Shown here: positions 1,790-32,499 of the stretch, in pieces
Position numbering within the stretch: the first letter of the stretch is position 1
How the letters are laid out: every line of letters starts with the position of its first letter
Origin: Rhina ancylostomus
Lineage: Eukaryota
NCBI GenBank assembly: GCA_030265395.1
Contig: JARFYF010000029.1
Location: 22,812,875-22,876,874 of the forward strand
Direction: 5' to 3'
DNA length: 64,000 nucleotides
Made by a program: the position numbers and the translations under genes
Notes under the pieces: generated by a model
The model's database searches: none
The model's input: the letters and a program-made list of their open reading frames with translations, nothing else
What the model was told of the DNA's origin: nothing

Positions 1790-2512
1790 CACCGACAACC
1801 TTTCTCACCGTTCGATGTAATGGGAGCCGGACAGTCCAATTTCACTGGATTCGTTGTTACACCTCAGGATGCTGTTGCTTTAATGGGGTTTATGTCGCGT
1901 TATTACTTCAAAATAAGTACTGATAAAAATTAATTCTTTAATATATTTCGTGTTCTTTATTGTCTTCATGTTTGTTTTGATCCTTTAAGTATATTGAACT
2001 TTACGTAAAACAGATGTGCAATATCTGAAAACGATGTTTATAATGAGATAGCCCCGTCTCCCGGAGCGACGATCCATGCAGACAGCCTGCGCCAGACAAC
2101 ACGGGTGATTCGTCGGAANNNNNNNNNNNNNNNNNNNNNNNNCGACCTCAATGGTAAGGTGGGGGAGAAGCAGATTGGGCTGATCGTCGCCTTTTATGGT
2201 CGGTGATTGGGTGGCGAAAACGGAACGAGAAGTGACGAATCTGAAGTGAGAAGGAAACCAGATTCAACAAATGAGCGAGCCGATTCGGAAACTTCATCTG
2301 AAATTCCTGGAAGCCGGAGTAAGCGTGAAGTGGGGCGCAATGCAGCGAGTGCCGCAAGATTCTGCGGCCAGACACTAATGCTGATAAATCAGCTGAAAGT
2401 CGCGCACTGCCTCAAGTCGGCCCTCCATGCAGGCTGAGGACAAATGCGCAGGTCTGGGTAAATGTAAATAAAAGCTGCAGCTGCCCACGGCCGGGCATTC
2501 CGCCCCGGGGCC
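1790..2512 (+). promoter_or_regulatory. CpG-rich promoter/5'UTR region of KLHL42
   Basis: CpG density rises clearly against the flanks. Two reverse CCAAT boxes (GATTGG near 2172 and 2205). Lies directly upstream of a strong-Kozak ATG (ggggccATGt). Confidence 0.7.
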
Positions 2513-3273
2513 ATGTCCTCCGACCAGACCATTGCCATCTCCATCGAGGATAAGACGTACAATGTCAGCAAAAGTAAGTTAATTGAGAAAAGCGACTATT
2601 TCAGAGCCCTTTATGAGTCTGGAATGAAGGAATCCGAAGGGGATTCGGTTCAGTTGCAGGGCTTGAGTGTTCATGGACTGGAGCTTGTCATCGAATTCAT
2701 CAACACCTCTAAAGTACATTTTGAGAACGACGCCCTGGAAGATTTGGTGGAAACGGCATCTTTTCTCCAAGTGACTTCCATATTGAAGCTGCTTCTCTCG
2801 GAGTTGAAGGTGGACAATTGTGTAGAGTTGTATAAACTTTCTGAAATCTATGGAATTAGTGACCTAATGAATGCTTCTCTCAGGTTTATGGCGTGGCACT
2901 ACCTCTCCATGCTCAGGAGGCAAGAATTTAGGCATCTGCCGAACGCTTTGCGTCGCCAGATTAAGGAGATGCGATTTAAAGGCACAGCTGTGTTGGTGGC
3001 AGTTGGGGATTTCTTCAGCACCTCCTTGGACCTGGTTCCCGGTGAACCCTGGTCGATGCTGAGATATGATGAGGTCGCCCAGAGATGGCTTCCCCTAGCT
3101 AATAGCCTCCCTCCTGACATGGTGAACGTGAGGGGTTATGGCTCGACGGTGTTAAATAATTACCTTTTTATCGTGGGTGGATACAGGATGACGAGTCAGG
3201 AAATTGCGGCAGCACATTGCTACAATCCCTGCAAAAACGAATGGAATCAGATCTCACCAATGAATCAAAAAAG
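2513..3273 (+). CDS. KLHL42: Kelch-like protein 42, coding exon 1 (BTB/BACK and start of kelch repeats)
   Basis: Translation SKxKLIExSDYFRALYxSGM, ASFLQV, LANSLPPDMVNVRGYG, NYLFIVGGYR, MNQKR is recognisably KLHL42. Donor AG|GTACTG at 3273/3274, phase 2. Confidence 0.96.
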
Positions 3274-3759
3274 GTACTGGAACGATGTAATATATTCTTG
3301 CCGCTTGATAATATTGCCTCCATCCAAGAAGCATTTTTCTGTTACCATAATTATTGCAAAATTAATTTACTTAAAGTAAATTTACACTACTCAACTTCAA
3401 TATTCCCATCCTACAAAATCTCTGAAAGTAACCTTGCCACAAGACTCGAGCAGTGCTTTTACACATAATAGATAATACGTCAAACGTGTTAGATTCATCA
3501 CCAAGAGTTTATCAGCTGAGATGTTTACCATAATGTTTATTCCTAAATGCAACATTTGCAACAAAATTAAATGATGCAAGTGTTTTTGAAGTCCAGTAAA
3601 TTGGTTGACACTATGTTGTGATGACAGTTTGACTTTCCACTTTTGTACCAGTAAGGGTATGATTTTGTTTTATCTACATTGATCATTTCATGCCAATATT
3701 TAAAATAAAATCAATTTTTTTTGCAGCAAGAGGTAAGTGTAAATGCAGTAGAGTTGTTG

Positions 3760-4800
3760 CAAAAAAAACTGATAGAAGAACTCAGCAGATCAGGCAGCCT
3801 CTGTGGAGGTAAAGAGGATGGTTGACATTTTGGATTGAGACCCTGCATCAGAACTGAGAGTAGAGGGAAGGCAGCTGGTATATTGGTGAGAGGGAGAGGT
3901 GACACAGAGGTTGGTAGGTGATGGGTGGAACCGGGGGGAGGGAATAGAGTTGAAACAGAGCTGGTAGAGTCATAGGTTGTACAGCATAGAGATGGGCCCT
4001 TCAGCCCACCATATCTACCCTGACCATTATGCCCATAAATAATAATCCTACTTACCTGCAATAATTCCATATCCCTTCATGTCCTGCTCATTCAAGTACC
4101 TATTCTTCTAGTGTAGCCTGAGGTCCCAGTTGCATCTCATTTACACTCCCCTTCCCATTCCCACACCAACCTGTCTGTCCTTGGCCTTCTCCACTGCTAC
4201 AGCCAGATGCAACTACAAGAACCTCATCTCATTTTCTGCATAGGCTACAGCCCAGTTCTATAAACATTGAATTTTCCAATTTCAGGATACGCACAACCCC
4301 CCGCCCCCTGGTTCCTTTCCTATTCCCACCAGTCCACCCAGAGCTTCTCTGCCATTGTTCACCTTTTCTATCCCTTCCTCCTTGTGCCCCGCATTTCCAA
4401 ATTCATCACCCTCCTGGTTCCATCTGCCCATCATCCACTTACCTACTGACCTAGGTTTCTCCTCCCTTGGTTCACCATTCCTATCCACTCCCCCACCTGG
4501 TTCCATCTGTCCACCATCCTTCTCTTATCACCAACCAGTCTTGCTCTCTACCTCCCACTTGGCTCCATCTACCCATCACCACCTCGCACATCTGGTTCCA
4601 CCTACCAGGTTTTGTCTCACCCCTCTTTCTCAGTTCTGTATACCAGCTATCTTCCCTTTACATTCTTGGTCCCGACACAGAGTCTTGGCCTGAACTGTCA
4701 GCCACTCCTTTGCCTCCATGGGTGCTGGTTCAACCGTTAAGTTCTTCCAGCAGTTTATTTTTTTGCTCCAGATTCCAGAATCTTCAGTCTCTGTGTCTTC
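3760..4800. mobile_element. Nested remnants: Penelope-like pLTR (-), CR1 3' tail (-), Penelope GIY-YIG C-terminus plus pLTR (+)
   Basis: 4125-4290 reads as decayed PVASHFxSPSHSHTxLSVLGLLHC..HLIF..NIEFSNFR. It is followed by a pyrimidine-rich tract and the shared pLTR end (..ttccagcag..ctccagattccagaatct). Confidence 0.7.
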
Positions 4801-6382
4801 AATATAGTTGTTGGATGTGTAGATAGGTTGCCATTAGATGTTTTTGTTTTTAATGTGAAAAAAGCACTTTCAACAATTTTGTAGCTATGTAACGTTCATA
4901 ACTGTGTCTTATCCTTCTGTATATAAGACTATAATTGCAGAATATTTGGTAGATACATTCTTTCAGTGAGCAAGAACTCTGCATCTAGTAGGGAAGACAT
5001 ACCAGTAAGTGTCTGCATTCTTCAATGGATCTTTTTCATAAAAAGCCTGTATGCTTCTCTCTGGATCAAACTATATTAAGGAAGTGGGCACACAACAAAT
5101 TAATTTGCAGGACAGTTTGTATACTTCAAATTTCTTAAGGATTCAAACAGCCATTAGTTTGTCCTATTTGTGTTGCCCTTCTGTCCTTGGCAGAACTTCA
5201 GAACAGTTGGATGATTTTTGTTACAGTGTGACTATACTTTTATCATCCTCTTCTTTCCCCAGATGTACATGAATCTCAGTACTTCAGTATAAGAATGAAC
5301 ACTTTTTTTCTTCTGATTCTAATATGAGTGTTTGTTTTTTTTATTTCTCAAGTCCAGTATATAGACTCCAATTCTATTTGAGTTTTTCAAATTATTACCA
5401 TGAGGATGTGTTTTATGCAGAACCTAAAGTATTCTTGAAGAATTCCTATAGTTTCCTTCCCACATGTGTACTGGTACCTGAAGAAAACATTGATGTAAAG
5501 GATTTAATGTTCCGGATAAGAGCAAAGGCAGCTCATTATTTCATTTGTGACTTGACAAGATTTGGAGTATGGACATTAGTTTACTTAGGTAGTGTGATAG
5601 CAGAAACCTCAGACAAGCCAAGGGAGAACAGTTATCATGGCAGTGCATGTTAAGCCAGGAACTGTACTGCTATCCTCAATTATTTTCTAAATTCCCTTTT
5701 CATGATATATCTCCAGTGGCTTGGTGATATCTTGGCTTTGTAATAGTATGTAAATATATAAATACATAAAACCTGCTGTCTTTTACATGTTGGCCTTGTT
5801 ACTTTTAGCTCACTCTTGCTCTTCTATTTTCTGACAAGCCAACCCTTGCAGCAGCATTATGGAACTGGAAAATTCCACCATGAACTTTGACTTCCAATGC
5901 ATTTTTATAATACTCCAAAACCTGGAACTAAATTTAGTCTGACTTGACAGTGCTCAACTCTCCTGTTTAGTGACTATAAATGTTGAATCTGAAATGGGCT
6001 AGATTAATCCCAGACTTTTGGATGCTTGCCCACAGTATTAAGTTGTCTAAACCTGAGCACTAATAAGCACTATATCATCAATCTCACTCAAGATGAAAAA
6101 TGATGACTGGTGTGAGCTCTGGGGAAATAGCATTAATCCACTAGACTATGTATTGGGAGTGGAGATTGAGGTAGTACTTGTTGAGAGCAGAATAGAGGAA
6201 CTTCAGCCAGTATTTAACCATGCCTCATCTGAACTGGGAATGATTGAGAGTGCTGATGGACAAACAAAATATTCTCTTGCCTAACATTTACGTACCTCAT
6301 TTTGACCATCGTATTATATTTAATGGTCAAATTCTATATTCTTGTTGAAGCTCTGTTCATGTTTTTCCTATTTTTCTTTCAG

Positions 6383-6576
6383 ATCAAATTTTAAGCTTCT
6401 GGCTGTATGTGGGAAATTGTATGCTGTAGGCGGACAGTCACTTTGCAATGTTGAATGCTACAATCCCGAGATGGATTGGTGGAGCTTTGTAGCTTCAATG
6501 CCAGATCCTCTTGTGGAGTTCTCAGCTTGTGAATGCAAAGGGATGATCTATGTAATAGGTGGATATACAACACGGG
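6383..6576 (+). CDS. KLHL42: KLHL42 coding exon 2 (194 nt, kelch repeats)
   Basis: Acceptor tttttctttcag|A completes the Arg codon. Encodes SNFKLLAV..YAVGGQ..NVECYNPE..EFSACECKG.IYVIGGYTTR. Donor G|GTGAGT at 6576/6577, phase 1. Confidence 0.96.
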
Positions 6577-8042
6577 GTGAGTTGTCATTTTTTTTTGCAT
6601 GGCTTTTGGAAGAGATTGATCTTTCTACACAATCAGAGTTTAACAAAATGCCATCGGTGCACTTGCAACTGGCATCACAGTAGTGAGGAGACACTGATTT
6701 GACTTTTTCTTTCAATGTCAAAGTCCTGGTCTTTGTTTCATGTTGTAAATGGAAGCTTGGACTTTATTCAGACTTGTAAGAAAAGTTGGATTGTGAGGCA
6801 TCCTGTACAAGGCTTTCTGGCAAGAAATAATATGCTCATATAAAGGTGTAACATCAAGGTGACGCTATGCAGTTTTTAACAACAATTCAACCAAAGGTAA
6901 TGTCGGTTTCAACACTGCCAAATTTGCAATATAAACTTTTCAAAACGTGGTATTCCTTGGAATCAAAAAAATATTGACACAGTAATTACTTGTCTCAAAA
7001 TATCTTGCTTTTAAAAAGCCTCTTCTATTCTTTTGCTATTTATACCAAAAATAGTTGAACTTTTGGCAGTTATCACCAACGCTATTCTGAATTTGCCATC
7101 AGAAAATTTCAAACCACAATGATCTAAGATTGAATTTTTCTCCCCATTTTGTTGAGATTTGGTTTTCTAGCAGGAATTTGTGTCCCCTACAAGTGGGTTT
7201 TGTGAACAAAAGGTTGAGAATTTCAATTCCTAAGGGTTATCTGATGCAGCAAAGGCAAAAAAGGCTCCACCAATGCTCTGTCATCTATTAGCTATTGGGA
7301 TAGCAGTATAATAGGACTGACTCAATTGCTGTAAAAGCAGCCAGCAGGGCCATAATGAGCTGAGTGGCAGCCTCCTGTGCTTGTAATGATTCTTTGATTC
7401 CGTAACATTTTGTTTTTGGTAATTTTTTGGAAGTTAACACCCTAGCTCCTGCTTGTAGTTTATAATTTTAGAAATGTATAATTTCATTACCATTTTGAAA
7501 TAAACAATTATGTTAATTCTTTTTATTGACTTTGCACATTCAATGTGATACGTGTAGCTCTGTCCCATTCATTTGATTTGTTTTCCAAACTAGAAATTGG
7601 AAAGAGGAAACAGCAGTGGGGAAATTAATGATTAAATGTTCCCTTTACACTTGTATCCATTCTGGTGTAGTACCTTGCTTCCATTCCCATGTATGCCTAA
7701 ACTGGTAATATTTCTGTGAGAAAGATTCTTCCTTTGGGGAAAGAAATGATTTGGAAATCTATGCCCAGGTTAACATACGTAACACCTAAACTGTTCATCT
7801 GCCCCTTGGATACCTTGGTTTTAGAGTTTCTGTAAGACTTGACCTTATTTAGTTGCTGTTCTCTTAGCTGCCAATAGAGCCTATTTTGCCCCATTACCTT
7901 TATCTCTTAACCTTCTCATTTCCCATGGATTTTAAGGTTTGCCCTTTAGAATGTAAAACTGCACTGAGAGTGTGACAGCACTGTAATGCTTGTTTAAAAT
8001 TATTTTGTTCTTGGGTTCACTTAAAATCACTTGTAATTCCAG

Positions 8043-8488
8043 ATAGAAACATGAACATATTGCGATACTGCCCTACATCAGACGCCTGGACTGTTATAGA
8101 ATCCTGTGAGGTTCATATTCGTAAACAACAGATGGTTTCTGTGGAAGATACTATTTATCTTGTGGGTGGCTGCATTCATGAGAAAGGTGGAAGTAAGAAG
8201 GGAAGCCATACTGAAGACATGCTCACTGTACAGTCGTATAATGTGAGCACTAGGGAATGGCTCTACCTTAAAGAAAACACATCAAAATCTGGACTAAATT
8301 TAACTTCTACGTTGCACAATGACGGAATCTACATCATAAGCAGAGATATTACACTATCAACCAGCCTTGAACATCGAGTATTCTTGAAATACAACATCTT
8401 TTCAGACATGTGGGAAGCATTCCGACGTTTTCCACCATTTGGTCAGAACATTTTACTCTGTTCGTTGTATTACCCTAATGGACTTTAA
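8043..8488 (+). CDS. KLHL42: KLHL42 coding exon 3 (terminal)
   Basis: Acceptor ttccag|AT completes Asp. Encodes DRNMNIL..HIRKQQMVSVE..LYLKENTSKSGLNLT..STSLEHRVFLKYNIFSD..stop. Spliced CDS is 761+194+446 = 1401 nt, giving 466 aa plus stop in an intact frame. Confidence 0.96.
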
Positions 8489-19700: not shown

Positions 19701-21529
19701 ATGTCTGGCACAACTTCAAACAGTTTTGTGGGATGGGAATGGTAGCCAGAGGATGGAATGCAAGGGACAGAACATGTAGCCTGAGAACCACCACCAAAAG
19801 TCCCTTCCCATGACCCACCCCACCCCCCTTTCAGGCTGCCAGTTGTCGAAAGTGGATGCAAGGGGCCTCTCCAACCAGCCTTCGCAATCCAGAGTCCAGC
19901 GTGGCAACAAAACCCAGCCCTGAAATTCCTCTGGCAGTCCTTGACATCTGAATTCAAAGTCTTATAAAAACACTATTAAAATTGGAGTAAATAATTTAAA
20001 AAAATATTAACATTGCATGAAAATAGTTAATTACAGAAAAACACTGCATTATTTAATGGTGATCCCTCAGATATGGGAGATTCAGTGATGATAGAATATC
20101 AATGTTGGTTAGAATCTGCCTTCTGCCTTTTTGTTTTGAAAATGTCTTTGCCAGGCACTTACCAGGCAAATGCTTTCACCACACCAGCCTTTGTTAGAAC
20201 ATTATCCAGGTTGTGTTGCATGCAGACTGACATTCCCAATTATGTGAGGGGCTGAAAGTGGATTTAAGCATTATGAAATCATCATTAAGAAACTTCACTT
20301 CAGACTCTGTTGAAGGAGAAGTCATTGATGTAGTGGCTGAAGAAGCCACAATCTGGGATGAACAGCAATGCCCTGGTACTGAGATGACTTTATTTTGTAA
20401 GCTAGTCATCACCCAACCTGTCTTTCACAATATCATTATGCTCCACCACAGGAACTAGGTTGGGAGGTGATGGAACAAGAACCAACATTTTTATTGTTGA
20501 TCTTTTTCTTTTATTTAATTGAGTAAAGGCCACGTGTTCTAAATGTATTCTTTGATCTGTGCGGGCCCAACTCAAGGGCAATGGGTGTAGTTAACACTGG
20601 AAGAAAACAAATAAGCAAAGCACATCTGTGAATGATCTATTTTACGTGTTTTCTGGTTATTTTGGAAACTTAAGTGAAAATTTTAATTAATGACAGCTTT
20701 ACAAATGTTTGATTGACCTTAGATCACCTCAGTCTCACACACACATGTTCACAGTTGCACACAGAAATATAGCCTTGGAAATTTAAGGTTGAAGTTGCAC
20801 CCTCTTTGTGAAGCACTCTGTAAACTTTGTACCCTGATCACTAATTTATGATCATATACATCACATTGAAAATCATCACTTCTGCAATGTAAATTACCTT
20901 TAACTCTTCACTTCCACAACCAAAATAAAATTACTTTTTGAAGGCAGTTCTCCTTTAATAATTTGCTTTCATTTGTACTTTGTGACCTGTGATGGCAGTA
21001 TTTGCAAGAGGAAATTTCAATGGAACCTGAAACATGAATATTTACACAAGCAAAGCTTCCTTATTCAAGGACAACTGAAGAATTTTCATCCTCAGATCTA
21101 AAAATGTGTTCAGTGAATTGGAATGGATGTTTGATCCAGGATATAAAAATAATTATTTTGGTTAAAATCTTGTGATTCACTCCTTGAACTGGGCCAGACA
21201 AAGTAATGCAAAACAGTTTGAGTTCCCCAATAAGAAACACAATTATTTATATTTGTGGTAATAGTGCTGTGCACTCAATGAAAGATCAAAGGTCTAGATC
21301 AGCTATGTCCAAACAATGACCCCCAGCTCGTGTCTTAGTCCTCTGCAGAAGAATGTTCCTGAGGAGGAAGCTCAGAAATTCTATCAAGGCGAGTGAGTGG
21401 CGGAATAGGACTTTCTCTGCGACTTCCCACCTTTGTGAAGAGACAAGATTATGGAGGAGGTGAACTAGGAGGAAGATCACCTGGGTGAAATTGGGAAGAG
21501 GCTCACAACGAATGGTTAGGTGAGGAATA

Positions 21530-21930
21530 GAGCAAAATACACTGCAAATGCTGGGATCTGGAACAAAACACAGAATGCAGGGATCAGGCAGCATCTGTGG
21601 ACGCAAGAAGGTGTAAATTGATGCTTTGGGTCCAGACCCTGCACCACGACTGAGAGAGAAGAGGAAAGATTGCCAATATATAGCAGCATGAAGGAGATGT
21701 GGAACAGAGGCTGGAACGTGACAGCTGGGGCCACATGAGGAGGGGATGATGGGCAGATGGAACCAGGTGAGAGGTGCGGGTGTGAGAGGGGATGGCAAAG
21801 ATAAACCAAGGATGAAGAAAACTCGGTGGGCAGGTGAATGTGTNNNNNNNNNNNNNNNNNNNNNNNNNNNNNNNNNNNNNNNNNNNNNNNNNNNNCTCAC
21901 GCCATTAGGTTGAAAGCTACCCAGGCGGCA
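21530..21930 (-). mobile_element. Penelope-like element 3' end/pLTR
   Basis: ctgcaaatgctgggatctggaacaaaa...tcaggcagcatctgtgga motif, a purine-rich tract, and the RLGSxQPNG ORF end just after the gap. Confidence 0.7.
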
Positions 21931-22593
21931 GAAGTGGTTGGGGATGTTGAGTGGATGAAGGGGTTGGTTGGACAAAGGATCGAGGTCTCGGGTCCGCAAT
22001 GGCATTTTGTGCGTGCCGCCAGATGGGCAGGGTTTGCCGTTTGTTGGCATTGTGAAAAACACCTCCCTTCCAGGAGCTGGCAGGACATGTGCTCGGAAAT
22101 GCCAGCGACAATGTCAGTCCGAGCCTTCTGCTTCGGACAATGTCCCTCCAAACACAGAAGTACGGGCACCCCTGACCAAGACACAATCCGTGCGATGATG
22201 TGCGTTTTTGTATTATTTGCTTAACCGTTTGCTTACCAGTTGTGGTTACTATTTAACTCTAAAGAAGGATGATCGTTTCTTTTATCTGTTAAGAAAACAC
22301 TTCAGGAACGAAAACACGTTATATACAGAGACTCAGGAAACAATTTCTTATTTCCTAGTTTTTATGTTCAAAATTTAACTTCAATCCGCCGGTTTAGGTA
22401 ATTAAATGGCATTCACTGAACGGATTGGAGGTGTTTTTCTTTAGCTAGCCTTTTTTTCGATAAAACGATAACAAGGGATGATTTAATATGTATCATAGTT
22501 CAAAGCTCCGGATGGAATCTCTTTACATTTTTCCTGAGTGCTTTAATTTGGAAATTGAACTCAGCACTTCCTCGATTGCACTTTGAATGCGTT

Positions 22594-22607
22594 CTGCCCT
22601 CTAGTGG
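22594..22607 (-). promoter_or_regulatory. Candidate CTCF binding site
   Basis: Minus strand reads CCACTAGAGGGCAG, a close match to the CTCF core consensus, in unique sequence between the two convergent genes. Confidence 0.55.
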
Positions 22608-23189
22608 TACACAGGAAAAATGAACTTTACATAAATTCAATATCTGCTGTTTTTCCACCAGTTTCAGATCGCATGGCCTAATGAACTATGGTGTCGATCT
22701 ACTGCAAAAGAAAACTGATCCAATAAATGGCGTGTTTCTCCTTCACGGAAAATCACCACGGTGGAGGTGGGGGCAAGTTATGTCCCAATGTTGTTTCCTA
22801 GGATTAACCTAAATAAAAGCGATCCCATTTCACCCAATAAAACCATCGTTGGGATACGTTTTATGAAGCCTGACAATGTATTAAATACAAGTTTATCCTT
22901 TGGTTATATTCCTGTTCAAAAGCAACTTTTTTCCCCCTCAAATCAAAAACCGAAGTTCAAAAGTTAGCATATTTCCAGGAGGGATGTTCTGGGGCACACA
23001 AAGCATTCCTGGCTGAGCAGGTGTGTCTACTATTCCTCTGAACGCTATTATCGAGATTTCCTGTGCTTTTGTCAGCTATTTCTAGTAAAATATACTGGAA
23101 TACTTCCAATAACTTTGCTGCCATATAAATTACTTTGAAAAATAACCATTGAAGCGTTGTTATTAAAGAGAGTTACTCCTTTTTCCATT

Positions 23190-23520
23190 TCAACCACGAA
23201 ATCACTTTATTATTGGTCATGTAACAACATTACTTGAACTCTAAAGTGCATATCTTTACAATATATCAAAAGTTAGCAGCACCATGATACATAGTTCAAA
23301 TAAATAGGCGATTTAACAAATAAATTACGGTATGTGACATTAATCATAAATTGTCAGATATTCACAATGACCAATGTACAGCTCCATAGTGTACACTCGT
23401 GTTTTTATTCTCTTGTGTGTTTTATATTTACAATCAATAAATATGTTTAATATTTTAGTTATGATCACACGAACAGAATACTGCAAAAGATATTTTTCAG
23501 TCTTCACCTGCAGAGCAGAT
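23190..23520 (-). other. PTHLH: PTHLH non-coding terminal exon (AU-rich 3'UTR)
   Basis: Acceptor attttcctttatttccgcag| with the exon starting at 23520. Several ATTTA pentamers and AATAAA at 23211-23206. Blocks acattggtcattgtgaatat, atgtatcatggtgctgct and atgcactttag resemble the mammalian PTHLH last-exon UTR as I recall it. The 3' end is uncertain. Confidence 0.8.
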
Positions 23521-26500
23521 CTGCGGAAATAAAGGAAAATTAAACGGTCGCTAGATATTTTAAACAAGCAACCAATTTACCGCCATAAAATACTGTCTAT
23601 GAACAATGACTGATAACTCTACAGCAAGTAGGAACTTAATTGGGCATCTCTGTGTTAATACGAACTAACTGTCTTTTAATATCTGTGCTGTGTATGATTT
23701 CAGTCATGCATATTTGCATATTCATATTTACTGGATGGGAACCAACATCGTCGAGCTGTTAGTTCCCACCCTATATCCTCTAAAGAAGTACCGTCTTCAA
23801 ACTAATAACTACTATATTAGTTATAATAATTGAAATTGTATTTCGAAGGTTTGTGTCAATGTTGATCGGTGCAACAAGCTACAATGCATGATAGATAGGT
23901 ACGGGGCGTGGGAGGGGTGGTGGTGGTGAGGGGGAGGTCCAAACAAAGGCTGCCAGATAAATATATCCTATCAAACATGCATTTTCTCATCGGAAGAGTC
24001 CAAGGTATACAGCTCAGAAGGAGAATCAAAGCAGCCACCAAATGTAGTTGATCTGGAGCCTTCTGGTCATTACATCTAAAGATTAACTCTCACAGTGAAA
24101 AGCACAATTTTAAAATCAAGGAGAATCCACCAGAAGTCCTAATGCACTGCATATTTTGGTTTTCTTGTATATCAAAAAGCTCAGTGGGTAAATTACTGGA
24201 AGTTGTATTCATATTGTTTTGCAATGATCTAATTTTGAATTTTAGTCATCTTTTTATTCAGAATTACATGTTTGGCATCTTTGCAGAAGATTGCACATCA
24301 TTAGCAAGTGCTTCCTTTAAAATTCAAGAAAACTTTCAAACCTTCTGTACATTTTCAATCATGTTTTATCTTGAATACATGCTATGAATCAGCATTTTAA
24401 GAAATGATGTGTTGTTTCAGAGACAATTTAAGTGAACATTGTACAATACTTAACTTCTGAATTGATTATTAGGTGTTCCTCAGATTGCATTTATAGAAGC
24501 TCAATGTAATACCGATACAAATATAAATCTCTGGCTGGGAAACATAACAATTGCAGTATTTAAATTAAATGGTGGGTTAGGCATTTTTGCCAAATAGAAT
24601 CTATTGCTCAATAAAATTTATTTCACCCATTGAAAAGGCTGGACTTTAAAGAACATGAATTGAGTCATCTCTTCACAGTAAAGAACAATCTCTAATTATT
24701 AGAACAACAGTGCTTGTTCCCAGGATATAATTGTATGACAAAGACAATGTGATGTTATGTAAATAATTATAAATTAAAATTAATCCAGAGTCAGAAGAGT
24801 GGGAATGGAATCTCATTATTTCGGGCCTTGGCAGCTGAAAGCATGGTTTTATTATGATTGTAGCAATACAGTCAGAAATATGCACGAAGCCAGAATTAGG
24901 GGAGTGCAACTACCTAAGGGAGTTGTAGGACTAACTGAGATAGGGGTGGTTGAGGTTATAGAGGGAAATGTATACAAGGGTGAGAATTTAGAGTCAAGAC
25001 ATTGGTTAACCAGGATCCCATGTAGTGATGTGAGTGATCACAGGGGTAAAGGCTGAACAGAACTTGTTGCAAGTTAGAACCTGGAAGCAGAGGTTTGGAT
25101 GACCTCCAATTTAGCAAGGGTAGAACATTGCCAGCTGCAAAGAATTACTGTAAAGTCATGACCAGAGGTAACAAATCCAGGGGTGGTGGTTTCCTTGGCA
25201 GATGAGCTGAAGCTGGGCCAGAGTTAAGTAACATTACAGAGAAGGAAACTTGGTGATGTTGTGGATTTTATGATTAGAAACTTTGCTGGAATTAAGANNN
25301 NNNNNNNCGTCCGGAAGAGAAGACTGCACACGTGTGGTTACCTCTGCCAGTGATTAAAACCTGAAGTGTTGCTTGCAGAATGCGTGGCGTTTAAATTATC
25401 TTATGCTCAAATCATCAGATATCCAGGAAGACCCATAGATACTTTAAAAATGGATTCAACATTATGTTGTGCTTCTCCCTGAAGCTCACCACGGGTTTAG
25501 ATTTTAACCTTGTACAGTTACATTGAGATTGTACTATCCACTCAAGTTATGTGCTTGTGAGGTGTAAAAGCAAAGCCATTATATAGATGTCAGTGTAAAT
25601 GGTGTCATCCCTGCCTTATCTGGGATCTCTGTCAGCCTGCAAGCTTCCAAAAAATCACATTCAGACGTTTAGGCCCCAAACTCTGGAATCCTCTTCCTTA
25701 GCGTCTCCGCCCCCTCTCTCCTCATCTTAGGAGCCACCAAACTTGAGGAAGTTTTTATCTGTCTGGTTCATAATTTTTAGCCTCAGTTTGCCAGACGGTT
25801 ACTGTGAACTACTTCGGGCGTTTTCCTGCGCTAAAGGTATTGAACACAGTCTGCGCCAACCCGCATGATGCTTCATTCCTTCTGTGCCTATTTTTATTTG
25901 GGGTGGGGGGCGTGGGGGAAACCGAAGGGGACTGAATAATGATACTCACTTACTCACACTATGCATTCCAACTTAAAAAGAGATCCAATGGGTTGGAACA
26001 GTTTTTAAACCTGCTATGTGCACACGCGAGTGTTCGCCGCCGTAACAAGCCAGACATGGTAAAATTGACTTCTAAAGGAGTTTGCCATCGCTGGGATTTA
26101 GAGTTGGTGTACAATCAAATCTCAGGCTACAAAATTAGAATCGTCACCGCAAACAGAGGCTTTTAAGGCGGGATTATGTTCGTATAATGCTGTTTGGATG
26201 TCTTCAGCTATTATCTGGCTACAGTTCTTGGTACACTCTCACTTTTAAAGTGCTTTTGTCTATTAACTTCTAAAGGAAAGAACATATATGACTAGTTATG
26301 CTGTCAGTCGCATGTATGGAGTATGATTTTGTGCACGCATCAATGAGAAAAGCATAGTTTGGGTGCTGAACAAACACTCCGGTACTTTACACACGCTCTG
26401 TATAACGCCCTCTCAAACCACGTACAGTTTGCACTTGACGCGATATTGCAACGTTGTGCAAGGATGTATTTCACAAATGTGAACTAATCTCTGCTAACGT

Positions 26501-26740
26501 TAAGATGTAACTGAACGGGTGCACACGCCTTCAAGCGCTCGAGTGCAGTTGGCTCAGTGCTTGTTCTATCTGGATCAGCGTGTTAATCTGAGATCTCTTT
26601 GTTTACAATTTTACAGCACATCACAGCAGATGCCGAACTCGGGCATTGCCCGCAGTCTTTAAACTTTAAAGCAAGTGTGAGAGAATGCACTGGGAGAGTA
26701 CTGTGTAGTTACCTAAAAATGTATTTTACAGGTTGGCCCC

Positions 26741-27218
26741 TCAGTGCCACAGCCGTCCATAGACGGCAGTGAGGAGCGGCTTGGAACCGGGTCCGCTGCT
26801 GAGATCCCTGACTTCGGAAGCGGCGGAGCGTGCTCGTCTCCTGCTCTTCTCCTCACGACCCCTCTGTGCTTTGCGCCTGCTATTCTTGCCTTGCTTCTTC
26901 CTCTTGCCATTCTTCTTTGCGTTCTGGTATTTTAAAGCACCGGGCTTGTTAGTCTCTTGCAACTGCTCCAGCGGCGTCTTGGTCCCCTCGTTGTTGCTGT
27001 TGTTAGCTGCCAGTTTGATGAGTAGCACAGCGAGGTCCGGCGTGTCCGGCCACGTCGCCGGGTGTTTGGGATTGCGAGGCGGTTGTGACTGAGCCAGTCC
27101 CCGGCCCTCTGCTGTGTGCAGCTCGCCCATTACATTGTTCAGCCAGATCCGCCTCTGCAGCTCCTGGATCGACCTGCTCTTGTCATGCATGAACTGGTGC
27201 TCCGAGACAGACCTCTTC
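26741..27218 (-). CDS. PTHLH: Parathyroid hormone-related protein, mature-peptide exon
   Basis: Acceptor tgtgttttgtag|G. Encodes KR-SVSEHQFMHDKSRSIQELQRRIWL..LHTAE (PTH-family 1-34), QETNK, a basic NLS (KKNGKRKKQGK..RRRARSA) and a TGA stop. The exon continues to a donor at 26713/26712. Confidence 0.96.
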
Positions 27219-27913
27219 CTACAAAACACAGACACGAGATTTGTATTATTTTAGATTAGAAAGCTCGGCACAAGCTCAAGTACCAGTTCTGACCACTTCA
27301 AAACTCGACAATTAAATTCCGATCGACCGTACCAAGAACGCTCTGAACTGCATTCCAACTGAATTTACTACGCTGGAGTTATTGTAGAATCAACATTCTT
27401 AACACACGCTGTTTCCTTTTGGAAAGGTTTTATGCCGTTCATTTCCAGATGCCAGCGTCAAATATACAACGCCCAAAGCAAAAGATCGGTCCGAACACAG
27501 CCCTACGCGTTAAATCAATACACCCGAGTGCGCGGCGTTTCGAAAAACCTCTACAACTGGATGGCAGCACAGCGCTTCTGTCGAGATAAGCGCCGTGCGC
27601 AGGGTGAAAAAACGGGATCAGTTACTGACCCAAAGTGCTGGCAGCGCAGCGAGCACAAATTCTTCACTTTGTAGTTTCTGTATTATAAAACCACGAACGT
27701 TTCCGCGACCCGAATACCCTTCAGACTAAAGCTGGCGAAAACCAGCAAATCAGGTGCAATACCAAATAAAAAAAACCAGGACAATTTATGCTCATTAAAT
27801 AGAAAGCTCTATCCTTTTTTTGTATTTGACAGGGAGTCACTTGAATGCTGCGTGCACCCTGCAGTCTAAAACTGGACTGTACGCTCACTTTCTACTAATA
27901 GGTAAAAGCTTAC

Positions 27914-28020
27914 TTTATATTGGAGATTTCGTCCACTGGTTTCCCATATGTAGCCATTGAACAACATAAGAGAAATATCGCCAAGCTCAGATGCTGAAAC
28001 AATCTTCTGGTGTTCGACAT
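27914..28020 (-). CDS. PTHLH: PTHrP prepro (signal peptide) exon
   Basis: MSNTRRLFQHLSLAIFLLCCSMATYGKPVDEISNI is a signal/pro sequence. Donor AA|GTAAGC (phase 2) joins the next exon to give a KKR convertase site. Upstream acceptor cgcag| at 28036/28035. Spliced CDS is 585 nt, giving 194 aa (38 prepro + 156 mature). Confidence 0.95.
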
Positions 28021-28189
28021 TTCACCTCTCCCAACCTGCGAATACATGAGTTTGCGAGTTATAATTAAGTACAGGATTGAATCCCACCAGCTTCTACGTA
28101 CGATCTCAAGTCTTTCCACAAGAAAACTGTGAAAATCGTAAAACATTGTTACACTACACATGTAAACCGACTCCTCTTCCCTCACTTAC

Positions 28190-28720
28190 TTCAGGGTGGC
28201 CAGTTCCTGCGACGTTTGACTGAATTTGACGCTTTACTGAACAATAGCGGTCTTAAGGTGCTCTCGAGGACGAAACAGAAAGGTAAATGGATTGCAAAAG
28301 TTTATCCAGCCGTGCAAATGAGTCTTTTAAAAACCATGCCAATTCAGCTGGATCGCCTGCTGTAGGACCATCGACAGCGTGCTGCGTGTTTGGAACCAGC
28401 CGAGCCTCTGTTACGCCAGAGACGTGCAGAGCAGCGCCCAGAATTCCAGAATTCCAACTCACTAATCAAATTAAAGACACAGTATCCCCCTGCACCGTCG
28501 CATCGGGCACATTCACGGTAAAAGTGAACTTTAAAATAGCTCACCTTTCTTTAAATCCCAACTTGTTTTAAAAGCTGGGTCCTCTTTTGGAAACATTCAA
28601 ACCGAGAATGTCCATTATCTAACCTCTAGGTATTTAAAGAAGAATTGAAATGGCAATCGGTTCGTTGAAGTTTATAGGAACATGAAGTTCTGATATAATA
28701 GTTAGCACTTCATCCAGAAT
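28190..28720 (-). promoter_or_regulatory. Candidate PTHLH 5' non-coding exon and proximal promoter
   Basis: Strong donor GAA|GTAAGT at 28190/28189, 154 nt upstream of the prepro-exon acceptor. CpG-rich, with a TATA-like TATTATATAT near 28700-28691. The TSS cannot be determined from sequence. Confidence 0.5.
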
Positions 28721-30572
28721 ATCTGCCAATTTTACAACAACTATGCCGGTCGCGCATCTTACGTGTGTGCATTACAGAGATTCCTGGAAGGTCTGACCTT
28801 GCAAAAGTGATACTAGGAAGTTCAAACTGTTGAACATCATCAACCCATCTAAGACTCACCAGTACATTGATTGATAACTTACTAGAGCCGAATTCAGGTC
28901 GCAAGTTTGGGCAGGTCTCCGAATTCACAGTTTTCAATGGCACTCAGTATGTTTCTTTGAAACTAGAACTGGATCTTCGCCGAACAGATTCGAGACTAAT
29001 AAAAGAAATAAACGAGTTTAGCTCTTGCATGTGCCGCGCATGCTTACCGCACCGATTCTGCCCAGGGTTTCCCAGTCCGAGACCTAGCCTTGATAAGCAC
29101 CTTTTCTCTGACATCACGCCGCGTTAATTTGCGTTTGACTAAGTCATCGCCGGTTTGATGCTGTTGAACACATCTGCATAGTTATGCAAAACCAGTGAAT
29201 TGGAACAAAAAGGACAATCATTAAAGAAAAAAAATGTTGGCAATGGTCTCACGAAGGTTAACAATAAAATGGACTTCGTTATAGTCTCAGGCAACTGCAG
29301 CCAGGTAGCAATCACTTTGTCAGCAGAACTTCTTTCTCTGGCTCCAAAAGCAAGAGCCATTACTGGCGAGGAAACACGAGAAATCCCCTCCTCTGTGCTG
29401 CATGTTTCGTGTCTTTGACGAAGAAATCTTAATTTGAGACAATTAAGTTTAAAACGGCAAGTCTTCTGATAAGTTATTGACTTGTAACATTAACTGGTTG
29501 ACCTAAAACATTTACTTTTTATTCTCCCACCTGTCCACAACTTGACGCCCTTGAGTGAAAGTAAAATTATGTTCGGTAGCTGAATCAATTCATACCCGGT
29601 ATGTTGTATACGTTTGTCTACTGTCGATATAATTGTATAGATTTGGCTTTGAAACGACCGCGATACATCGGATATTATGTCTGGTACGGCATAGCATTCT
29701 CACAATATGGGTATTTGGTATTGCCTGTATACAATGAAACCAGTATTCTTCAGTCTTATTAGCACCAACATGTGCACCAACTCTACTTCTTTCGCATTTA
29801 AAAGCAAGGAAAGTGTACATTCATTAACAAGCACCCTCCACTGAAACATGGGGATGTTATGGTCCGGTCAGTACCGATTAACACGGAGGAAATATCATAA
29901 GCGCTTCGATTTTGCAGCCAATTGCGTAACACTGAGAGCTGTCCATGGTGATTACTAGATTTGTTCTTTGTCGAGAAAATTAAATCATAATTGGTTAAAA
30001 GACAGGGAAAATGCTTTGCAAAGCTATCTACAGGTCCTTGATGGAAATGCTTGTGATTTGATGCTTTCTGATGATTCTCTGAAGGAGGAAATTAGAATAT
30101 TCCTCGGTATACCTTTATTTATTTCAGCGTCGACATTAGTAAGTTTTCCTTACTGCAGTGTAAACATATGTAATGACGGAAACATGCAAAAAAATCTTGA
30201 TTAATTTAACAAAAATGACAATAAAATCGTATAAACCCGATTATTAATTATAAACTATAATTTAAGCTCGTAATTTAAACGTTGATTTATGATCGATGTT
30301 AGGTCTTTCTTTCGCACGTATGGTTTGGCTGCCACTGAAACGGGAATGCTAGATTCTAGCTCCCATGCTACATTTCTAGTTCACCATCTAGTTCATACCA
30401 AATCCAAACTTCACCTTGTCCGAGATCTTAAGAAACCAAGGGATAGGAAAATGCCGGAAATACTCAACGGACCAGAAAAAATGGAATCATTGTTGCAGAC
30501 TGATGATCTTTCATCAGAACTGGTCAGTTTTCTGAAATTGTTTAAGCCATCCCTGAGTCCCAAGGCTATGGC

Positions 30573-30924
30573 TGTCATGGTTCTGAGTTCTGGCCCTCAA
30601 TTTGGCTCCTTTAATGCCTTGTTNNNNNNNNNNNNNNNNNNNNNNNNNNNNNNNNNNNNNNNNNNNNNNNNNNNNNNNNNNNNNNNNNNNNNNNNNNNNN
30701 NNNNNNNNNNNNNNNNNNNNNNNGTGGTGTACTCTAGAGCAGTCCTGTGTTCTCTATTCCTTTGTGAAGATCCAGTTCATGTTGGGATTCCTCTTCTGAT
30801 TTCCGAGGCAAGATTCCTTCCAGTTACTGCCTGTGTTTGTCCTGAGGAAGCATCCTGACTCCAGTCTTGTCTCAGTGTGCCGCATTTGGGTTCTCTGAGT
30901 TTGCTCCGTATCAACATTGTGACA
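30573..30924 (+). mobile_element. Solo LTR, Gypsy family (copy B)
   Basis: TGTCATGG...TGTGACA termini. 5-bp TSD ATGGC at 30568-30572 and 30925-30929. Opposite orientation to copies A, C and D. Confidence 0.9.
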
Positions 30925-31334
30925 ATGGCGCGCCAAATCGGAAGTTGGTTTGCTGTTCCTCGGGCTGACATCGGACTTTGTTGGAACACTGCAAGAGGCG
31001 AAAGACGAAGAATGGAGTGCGATGGCCAATAAATGTGGCAGATAATTGGAAGACCAGGGCACCCTTGTAGATGGAGGTGTTCAGCAAAGTGGCGACTCAA
31101 TCTGCTTCCGGTTTCGCCAATGTAAAAGATTCAACAGTGAAATCTGATTGTCCTACACCGCACTCTTGCACTGTCCTCCCATTCTTCGCTCTTGAAACCA
31201 GTTGTTTAATAATCAGTTCACAATTGTCAGCACTGAATTGGAGCCACTTTCCTCATGAAGCTCAGATGGAAATTCCTAGAACTTGAGTCTTCCATTTGTT
31301 TTTTTTGCCGGCAACCAATACTTATTGTGTTACG

Positions 31335-31425
31335 CACACAAAATGCTCGTGGAACTCCGCAGGTCAGGCAGCATCTATGGAGGGGAATGAACAGTCAACG
31401 TTTCGGGCCGAGGCCCTAATCAGGG
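31335..31425 (-). repeat. Penelope pLTR fragment with hammerhead-like core
   Basis: Minus strand CTGATTA-GGGCC-TC-GGCCC-GAAAC followed by the shared atagatgctgcctgacctgc motif. Confidence 0.65.
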
Positions 31426-32499
31426 TGACATTGTGTTATTTTATTTCTTAGTACTGTGTCCATCTAACCTCGACTACGGATTGCATTACTTTGGCAATAG
31501 TTTGTGTTTCACGGGTTTTCAAGGTGGTTCTCCTAACACCATTTGTGGTGATTTGACAGTGTTTTTTGCTTTTTAATGCCGTGGTCAATCTGCGATGTTT
31601 TCTCTTTAGTATAAACAATCACCACCCTCTCCATTGGAATATACATTGTCGCCTGTGACGTGTGAATTCGGATGTGCTTTTAGGCAGTGGTAGGATATCT
31701 GAATGTACGATACTATAGATTCTATATAGTGATTTTATATTAAATATGACGTGTCCTCGTGTATCTGGCTCCTGATATGCATATCGTGTATAGCTGATGG
31801 CTCCCTGAAAGCAGACTTGGCGGGATTTGCTAAGCTTGGCCACCACGAGATGAGTCTTGGAAAATGTACTTTGGTAAGGCTGCCAGTTGCAGTTGCATGA
31901 TACCATAGGGAGTCAGCCAGCCAACAGCACCAGCTTACGCCAACATGAAAGTGGTTTTATACTGCCTGGCTGGAATTGCATTAACCTGGCCAGAAGACAA
32001 TCTACGTATATTTTTAAATGCACGCAAATAACTCCAAGAAGAAAAGAAATACTTGCATGAGGACAATTTGCTATGTATTTAGATCTACTGTAGATGGTTT
32101 CTCAGGTTGAATGGTGCCAGTCATTCTTGCGGGTATTCGAAGCATTTCACTTTTATGAGCATTGGCTCAGACTTTACCCACGGTAGTGGGGTCAGAGGTT
32201 ATAATAGTGACCTAAATGGGAGTCGCGTGCGTTTCACCAATGTCTCCCATGCAGAGCAAGTGACGATAGACGAGGAGAGGCTTTGTTCAAATTGTGAAAC
32301 GTCATTAACAAGAGTTGCAGTTACGATCAGACTCCCAGGTTCATGGAAGCTCACGCCGCAGAACGTGCTGTGTACCTGGCGACTGAAAAAAAAAGCAGCC
32401 CCATTTTCTAACTCTTTGACCACGGTCTCTTAGATTACGGAGCACGAAGCCCTGAGCTCAGTAGTTTTTCGATGTGATGAATATTTCCTCGTCTACCAC

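Follow-up and report, generated by a model that had tools for sequence, protein, structure and literature searches.

This locus raises the question whether a stretch separated by an intron from the coding part of a hormone gene is a hidden last exon of that gene, and whether the microRNA sites that it carries are as old as the jawed vertebrates. The window (the whole stretch of DNA that was analyzed, 64,000 nucleotides from Rhina ancylostomus) has a PTH-family gene on its minus strand; the mature-peptide exon matches Pfam PF01279 with an E value of 7.4e-22, and comparison of the protein with the PDB returns PTHrP as the best match. Cartilaginous-fish PTHrP accounts for 14 of the 15 protein matches, headed by that of the sawfish Pristis pectinata at 96% identity, which by itself places the window in a ray or close relative. 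(Among elasmobranchs the skate and catshark proteins, P0011-P0014, diverge much faster than the rest (51-67%) and have C-termini that differ.) Judged by its sequence, the host gene is ray PTHLH, which encodes PTHrP; the stretch under study is single-copy, occurring once in the 2.2-Gb genome. A BTB-BACK-Kelch gene at 2468-8488 on the plus strand is convergent with PTHLH, and we take KLHL42 to be the human neighbor of PTHLH. The answer argued here, which we hold to be very probable, is that the stretch is a non-coding last exon of ray PTHLH, spliced onto the message in a relative, and that it likely dampens PTHrP through a cluster of miR-29, miR-15/16 and miR-17 sites handed down from the jawed-vertebrate ancestor. 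The grounds are the identity of the gene, the splice in the relative, seed matches to the genome's own microRNA hairpins, near-invariance in six relatives and, by eye, collinearity with the human sequence.

Splicing was followed in relatives, 8 of 24 listed runs (coded X1, X3 and so forth) being compared. X1 (organism A) contributes a single 1,192-nt contig across five exons, in pieces that align at 29050-28883, 28264-28188, 28033-27913, 27217-26711 and 23518-23228. The first of these lies in a 5' non-coding exon (28883..29050, in part) and the second is a further 5' non-coding exon (28188..28264) whose joint with the next, 28033/28188, has GT-AG ends in X1 and X3. The third is the prepro exon (27913..28033), recognized by its translation and by matching N-termini in the alignment, and spliced in both X1 and X3; the fourth is the mature-peptide exon (26713..27217), identified by the Pfam, PDB and sawfish matches. 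The final joint of the contig omits 3,192 nt, a stretch exactly as long as the GT-AG intron predicted at 26712-23521 (donor GT at 26712-26711; acceptor AG at 23522-23521; exon start at 23520). An earlier note on this DNA had postulated a spliced PTHLH 3'UTR exon with the junction 26713->23520, and this junction is borne out by one contig from one run of a relative of R. ancylostomus, no RNA of the species itself having been found. The aligner places the joint 2 nt off, likely reflecting a changed first exon base in the X1 species. The last exon (23180..23520) is covered by contigs in six of the eight runs; its 3' end we infer from an AATAAA.

Two tandem acceptors (23507..23529) precede this exon. 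The AG for an exon start at 23520 is in place on the minus strand as the earlier note had read it, and likewise that for a second start at 23507 (AG at 23509-23508). X1 splices at the first acceptor; X3 (organism C) is without 13 nt there, so that only the 23507 acceptor is left. (Within 23529-23507 on the minus strand, a 13-nt stretch that resembles a tandem duplication yields both acceptors.) The intron within the 3'UTR (23521..26712) is spliced out in X1 and retained or read through in X3: the X3 contig has two upstream introns spliced, yet continues through the last intron and over the acceptor. An intron-retaining or read-through PTHLH RNA thus also exists, although contigs cannot separate pre-mRNA from isoform. 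Two raw RNA runs of the relative that supplied the X1 contig (X23 and X24), with 6 and 2 partial reads, all intronic and none on exons, are uninformative.

The TGA stop codon (26743-26741) is followed by 28 nt of 3'UTR ahead of the donor. Because the stop precedes the junction by these 28 nt, and because the protein C-terminus falls at the window's alignment column in 10 of 14 relatives, the last exon is non-coding in this group: the window's protein stops in the coding exon, and the last exon does not encode the final residues of a longer isoform. Nonsense-mediated decay follows a rule of 50-55 nt between stop and junction; since the junction is only 28 nt past the stop, the spliced PTHLH mRNA would escape it. 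Human PTHLH exon IX (PTHrP 1-141) is likewise a last exon following the mature-peptide exon. In chicken (exon 6) and human the final exon consists of the last residues and the 3'UTR, as described in a portion of PMC3009671, whereas the last exon of the ray adds no residues and is wholly non-coding. In portions of PMC3009671 and PMC4354418 the splice complexity of PTHrP is tied to the radiation of tetrapods; the last exon as a separate unit predates tetrapods.

Sequence identifies an 8mer site for miR-15/16 (TGCTGCTA, 23274..23281) and an 8mer site for miR-17/20/93/106 (GCACTTTA, 23242..23249) in this exon; a 7mer-m8 site for miR-29 (23278..23284), identified by the seeds of the genome's mir-29 hairpins, overlaps the miR-15/16 site. 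The two 8mers, together with a 21-mer discussed below, had been located correctly on the minus strand in the earlier note, whose list of sites, confined to miR-15/16 and miR-17, missed the overlapping miR-29 7mer-m8 at 23284-23278. Hairpins of each family are present in the genome, with five mir-15 loci above the Rfam cut-off and one below it, 10 of 12 mir-17 matches above the cut-off, three mir-29 and three mir-27. Seeds (nt 2-8) taken from these hairpins, the mature 5' ends being set from the usual position of the seed, match 23281-23275 (mir-15), 23249-23243 (mir-17) and 23284-23278 (mir-29). The site flanks are 72-73% AU, and the predicted accessibility of the three sites is middling to low (39th, 56th and 12th percentile). 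Among 20,000 dinucleotide shuffles of 23520-23190, the miR-15 8mer appears in 153, the miR-17 8mer in 128 and both in 1, before any correction for the many possible seed families; because these figures ignore the choice among families, conservation is the real test. (A second miR-17 8mer, at 26253-26246 on the minus strand, is intronic, ~460 nt past the donor; a read-through isoform would carry it in its 3'UTR.)

Parts of the exon are covered in six runs from six coded organisms. In X1, 5 of 291 exon nucleotides differ (98.3% identity), as against 45 of 640 in the alignable intron pieces, which are 91-96% identical (Fisher p=0.0005). The X1 coding exon differs at 19 of 507 nt, and relative to it the last exon is not significantly more conserved (p=0.13). 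Among the 18 substitution positions listed for the six runs, two lie within a named motif (in each case the ATTTA at 23351, in X12), and none falls inside a microRNA site; the changes listed are 5 of 5 for X1, 10 of 25 for X3, 3 of 4 for X8, 3 of 5 for X10, 3 of 4 for X11 and 8 of 11 for X12, one difference table giving 40 of its 204 rows and another leaving out changes close to contig ends. The miR-15/29 site has no listed change in the five runs covering it, and the miR-17 site none in the four covering it (the list being complete for X1 only); an insertion adjoining the miR-29 site in X3, X8 and X10 leaves that site intact. (The intron pieces 24218-24388, 23587-23859 and 25715-25910, of which the first is common to X1 and X3, are present in RNA-like contigs at 91-96% identity in X1 and 84-91% in X3. 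Conserved non-coding elements and an alternative read-through 3'UTR are both possible interpretations of such pieces.)

Comparison with human was made by eye, setting the 78 non-adaptor nucleotides of an 83-nt PTHrP reporter oligo (Table 2, the part of PMC6425345 used here) against 23292-23232. Five identical blocks of 7, 10, 6, 12 and 6 nt occur in the same order, making up 41 of the 78 nt. The starts of the miR-15 and miR-17 sites are 34 nt apart in human, 32 in the window and 34 in X12, which also carries the human base at 23285. The shared 10-nt block contains the miR-29 7mer-m8 site, and in human exon IX the miR-29/miR-15 overlap and the miR-17 8mer follow one another as in the ray, at nearly equal spacing. 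The collinearity with the human 3'UTR that the earlier note had proposed accordingly holds, by eye and over 23292-23232, for the miR-15/16 and miR-17 sites, which implies that these arose before cartilaginous and bony fishes diverged. The proposal of two 8mers needs an amendment: the miR-17 site is an 8mer in ray and human alike, but the miR-15/16 site, an 8mer in the ray, ends in G in human and is there a 7mer-m8. Past the miR-17 site, the human oligo has a short stretch with a match that we assign to the miR-190 seed and that is absent from the ray exon. (A conserved degradation-trigger site at miR-15 was considered and rejected: 3' pairing is predicted, at -21.9 kcal/mol with a miR-15b-type microRNA, but by eye the human oligo has other bases at the paired positions.)

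The microRNA module is not new in mammals, where repression of PTHLH by miR-15a, miR-29b/c and miR-106b is already published. The mutant described in the part of PMC6425345 used here alters exactly the TGCTGCT site, and the wild-type PTHrP reporter is repressed by a miR-15a mimic. A cattle PTHLH 3'UTR reporter falls by 37% with miR-29c and by 49% with miR-106b, with no drop when mutated, and a miR-29b reporter test on human PTHLH has been published; these mammalian repression tests are mimic-overexpression reporters. The cattle 3'UTR has miR-29 and miR-17-family matches in common with the ray exon, and the forward primer used for it spans a similar acceptor-exon boundary; miR-190a also acts on the cattle 3'UTR, whereas the ray exon is without a miR-190 match. 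A literature search returned no paper on the miR-29/15/17 cluster in cartilaginous fish (which did not extend to the cloning papers for elephant shark and for chicken; these may describe the exon). One supplementary file of PMC13394485 (chimeric eCLIP) has no PTHLH row, which is no test of absence. What is new here is the age of the control, together with a lead to miR-27; mainly, a known control turns out to be old.

How the cluster would work is suggested by these mammalian precedents. Argonaute loaded with miR-29, miR-15/16 or miR-17 would bind its site and, as reported for human and cattle, would speed decay of the PTHLH mRNA or lower its translation. Of the overlapping miR-29 and miR-15 sites only one would be occupied at any moment, and the miR-17 site, 32 nt off, could cooperate with either. 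Intron retention, or use of an upstream AATAAA, would yield mRNAs that are free of these sites. The candidate main poly(A) signal is the downstream AATAAA at 23206..23211; relatives' contigs end at 23192-23228, and contigs cannot show transcript ends. A candidate proximal AATAAA (23404..23409) stands ahead of all the microRNA sites and, from its sequence and position, is a candidate short-UTR switch; neither X1 nor X3 has a change listed in it, and a loose end of X12 contains it.

The microRNA cluster does not exhaust the conservation of this exon. The conserved 21-mer of the earlier note is found at 23378-23358, but an insertion near its 5' end (in X3, with the same letters in loose ends of X8 and X11) interrupts it in three relatives, and what is invariant is a core of 19 nt (23358..23376), unchanged in the relatives covering it. 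This core may be present in mammals as well. It constitutes a further constrained element, and a search of literature text found no paper printing the 19-mer. (As a dispersed motif the core was rejected: the genome holds five matches with at most one mismatch, its own included, where ~4.6 are expected. Another exact copy, 0.1 being expected, lies among repeats with dissimilar flanks and is treated as chance.)

One account of the block, possible though open to considerable doubt, is that it is kept because it forms one arm of a hairpin whose other arm is 23346-23337, or because a protein binds it, and not as a target of microRNA. The stem with 23346-23337 appears in both the minimum free energy and the centroid structures, with pair probabilities of 0.6-0.72 for 23377-23368, and the positions changed in X12 (23348, 23349 and 23357) sit in the bulge and loop of the hairpin; for a protein site speaks the binding of HuR to the 3'UTR of human PTHrP-141 mRNA, reported in an excerpt of PMC10376784. 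Against the hairpin, folding of 23400-23230 gives a z-score of only -1.0, with 29 of 200 shuffles equally stable, the listed differences include no compensatory changes, and Rfam covariance models give no match at E<=1 in 20000-32000.

The best single guess at the function of the block, itself rather unlikely to be right, is a wobble, 3'-compensatory-like site for miR-27, of a rare kind with a wobbled seed and extended pairing, which would give the exon a module of four microRNA families. The segment 23374-23361, all 14 nt of which fall within the invariant core, pairs with nt 1-14 of all three of the genome's own miR-27 hairpins, continuously over nt 2-14 and with an A opposite nt 1; G:U pairs occur at nt 7, 10 and 12. 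Additional 3' pairing past a bulge brings the predicted duplex to -21.5 to -23.9 kcal/mol, and the change at 23382 in X3 (the same letter is seen in loose ends of X8 and X11) turns a G:U pair of this 3' pairing into A:U. Thirteen continuous pairs from nt 2 are reached by 25 of 300,000 shuffled miR-27 sequences (~1e-4 per microRNA) and by only 10 of ~116,000 other genomic 21-mers, some of them overlapping, and the match is unique across 124,572 window positions. (Helices of miR-23 and miR-24 with the block are of 5 and 4 pairs only.) But miR-27 was picked post hoc among known families, and over 200-300 conserved arms the chance of such a match is ~2%. The wobble positions are without listed change in relatives, which hints that the exact letters matter for some other reason, and the block is predicted to lie within a stem (pair probability ~0.7), which also argues against miR-27. 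The titles and abstract openings of 11 papers naming PTHLH, PTHrP and miR-27 show no link of the microRNA to the gene. Effective 3'-compensatory and centered sites make up less than 1% of predicted effective sites, according to the part of PMC4532895 drawn on here. The same part describes 3'-compensatory sites such as those of let-7 on C. elegans lin-41, which combine a seed wobble with pairing past the seed, as predicted for miR-27; those sites resume in a long Watson-Crick 3' helix, whereas the block is predicted to pair nt 9-14 with two more wobbles. The fullest form of the miR-27 proposal holds that the block has been a hidden wobble-seed site since the first jawed vertebrates, that the four-family module (miR-27, miR-29, miR-15/16 and miR-17) could be dropped wholesale by intron retention or upstream polyadenylation, and that this switch predates tetrapods; we regard it as quite unlikely.

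AU-rich elements, rather than microRNA sites, might be the main conserved control of the exon, but this too is improbable. Four dispersed ATTTA pentamers (23301..23442) begin at 23442, 23351, 23325 and 23305, within 2 nt of where they had been reported before, and four against a mean of 1.2 in shuffles (P=0.025) counts for such control. Human PTHLH is listed among the ARE mRNAs, in class V, the weakest one shown, and HuR stabilizes human PTHrP-141 mRNA (excerpts of PMC2921490 and PMC10376784); the ray exon is alike in being a U-rich last exon with dispersed ATTTA. The ray pentamers differ in being unclustered and not all conserved: exon 23520-23190 has no overlapping pentamers and no TTATTTA[AT] core, and the only listed substitutions within a named motif destroy an ATTTA, that at 23351, in X12, so that the earlier claim of AREs survives as a weak enrichment, short of a demonstrated conserved element. 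Adjoining the first ATTTA is a putative Pumilio-type element (TGTAAATA, 23425..23432), unchanged in X1, which we assign from the motif. (By the same motif, the X12 change at 23254 makes a perfect Pumilio-type element at 23260-23253 on the minus strand, just ahead of the miR-17 site.) Least credible of all is that conservation of the stretch reflects chiefly a role as DNA (an enhancer) or slow elasmobranch evolution, with incidental seed matches, a reading that alignable intron pieces (84-96% between relatives) and coding exons 96% identical in X1 would allow, but that has against it the splicing of the stretch as an exon in X1, the centering of the human-shared blocks on seed matches in the mRNA strand, and the RNA-level function revealed by mammalian reporter mutants.

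The preferred reading remains that of a non-coding last exon with an old microRNA cluster. The dose of PTHrP, a bone-and-cartilage hormone, determines how fast chondrocytes mature. Were the miR-27 pairing genuine, it would rank among the very few non-canonical sites with deep conservation, and a pre-tetrapod switch, if true, would run counter to the published view that the 3' splice variants of PTHrP arose on land. Among the reported PTHLH sites, that of miR-190 may be a later addition; the presence of the cluster in rays and sharks marks the miR-29, miR-15/16 and miR-17-family sites as the old ones, and as probably important in vivo.
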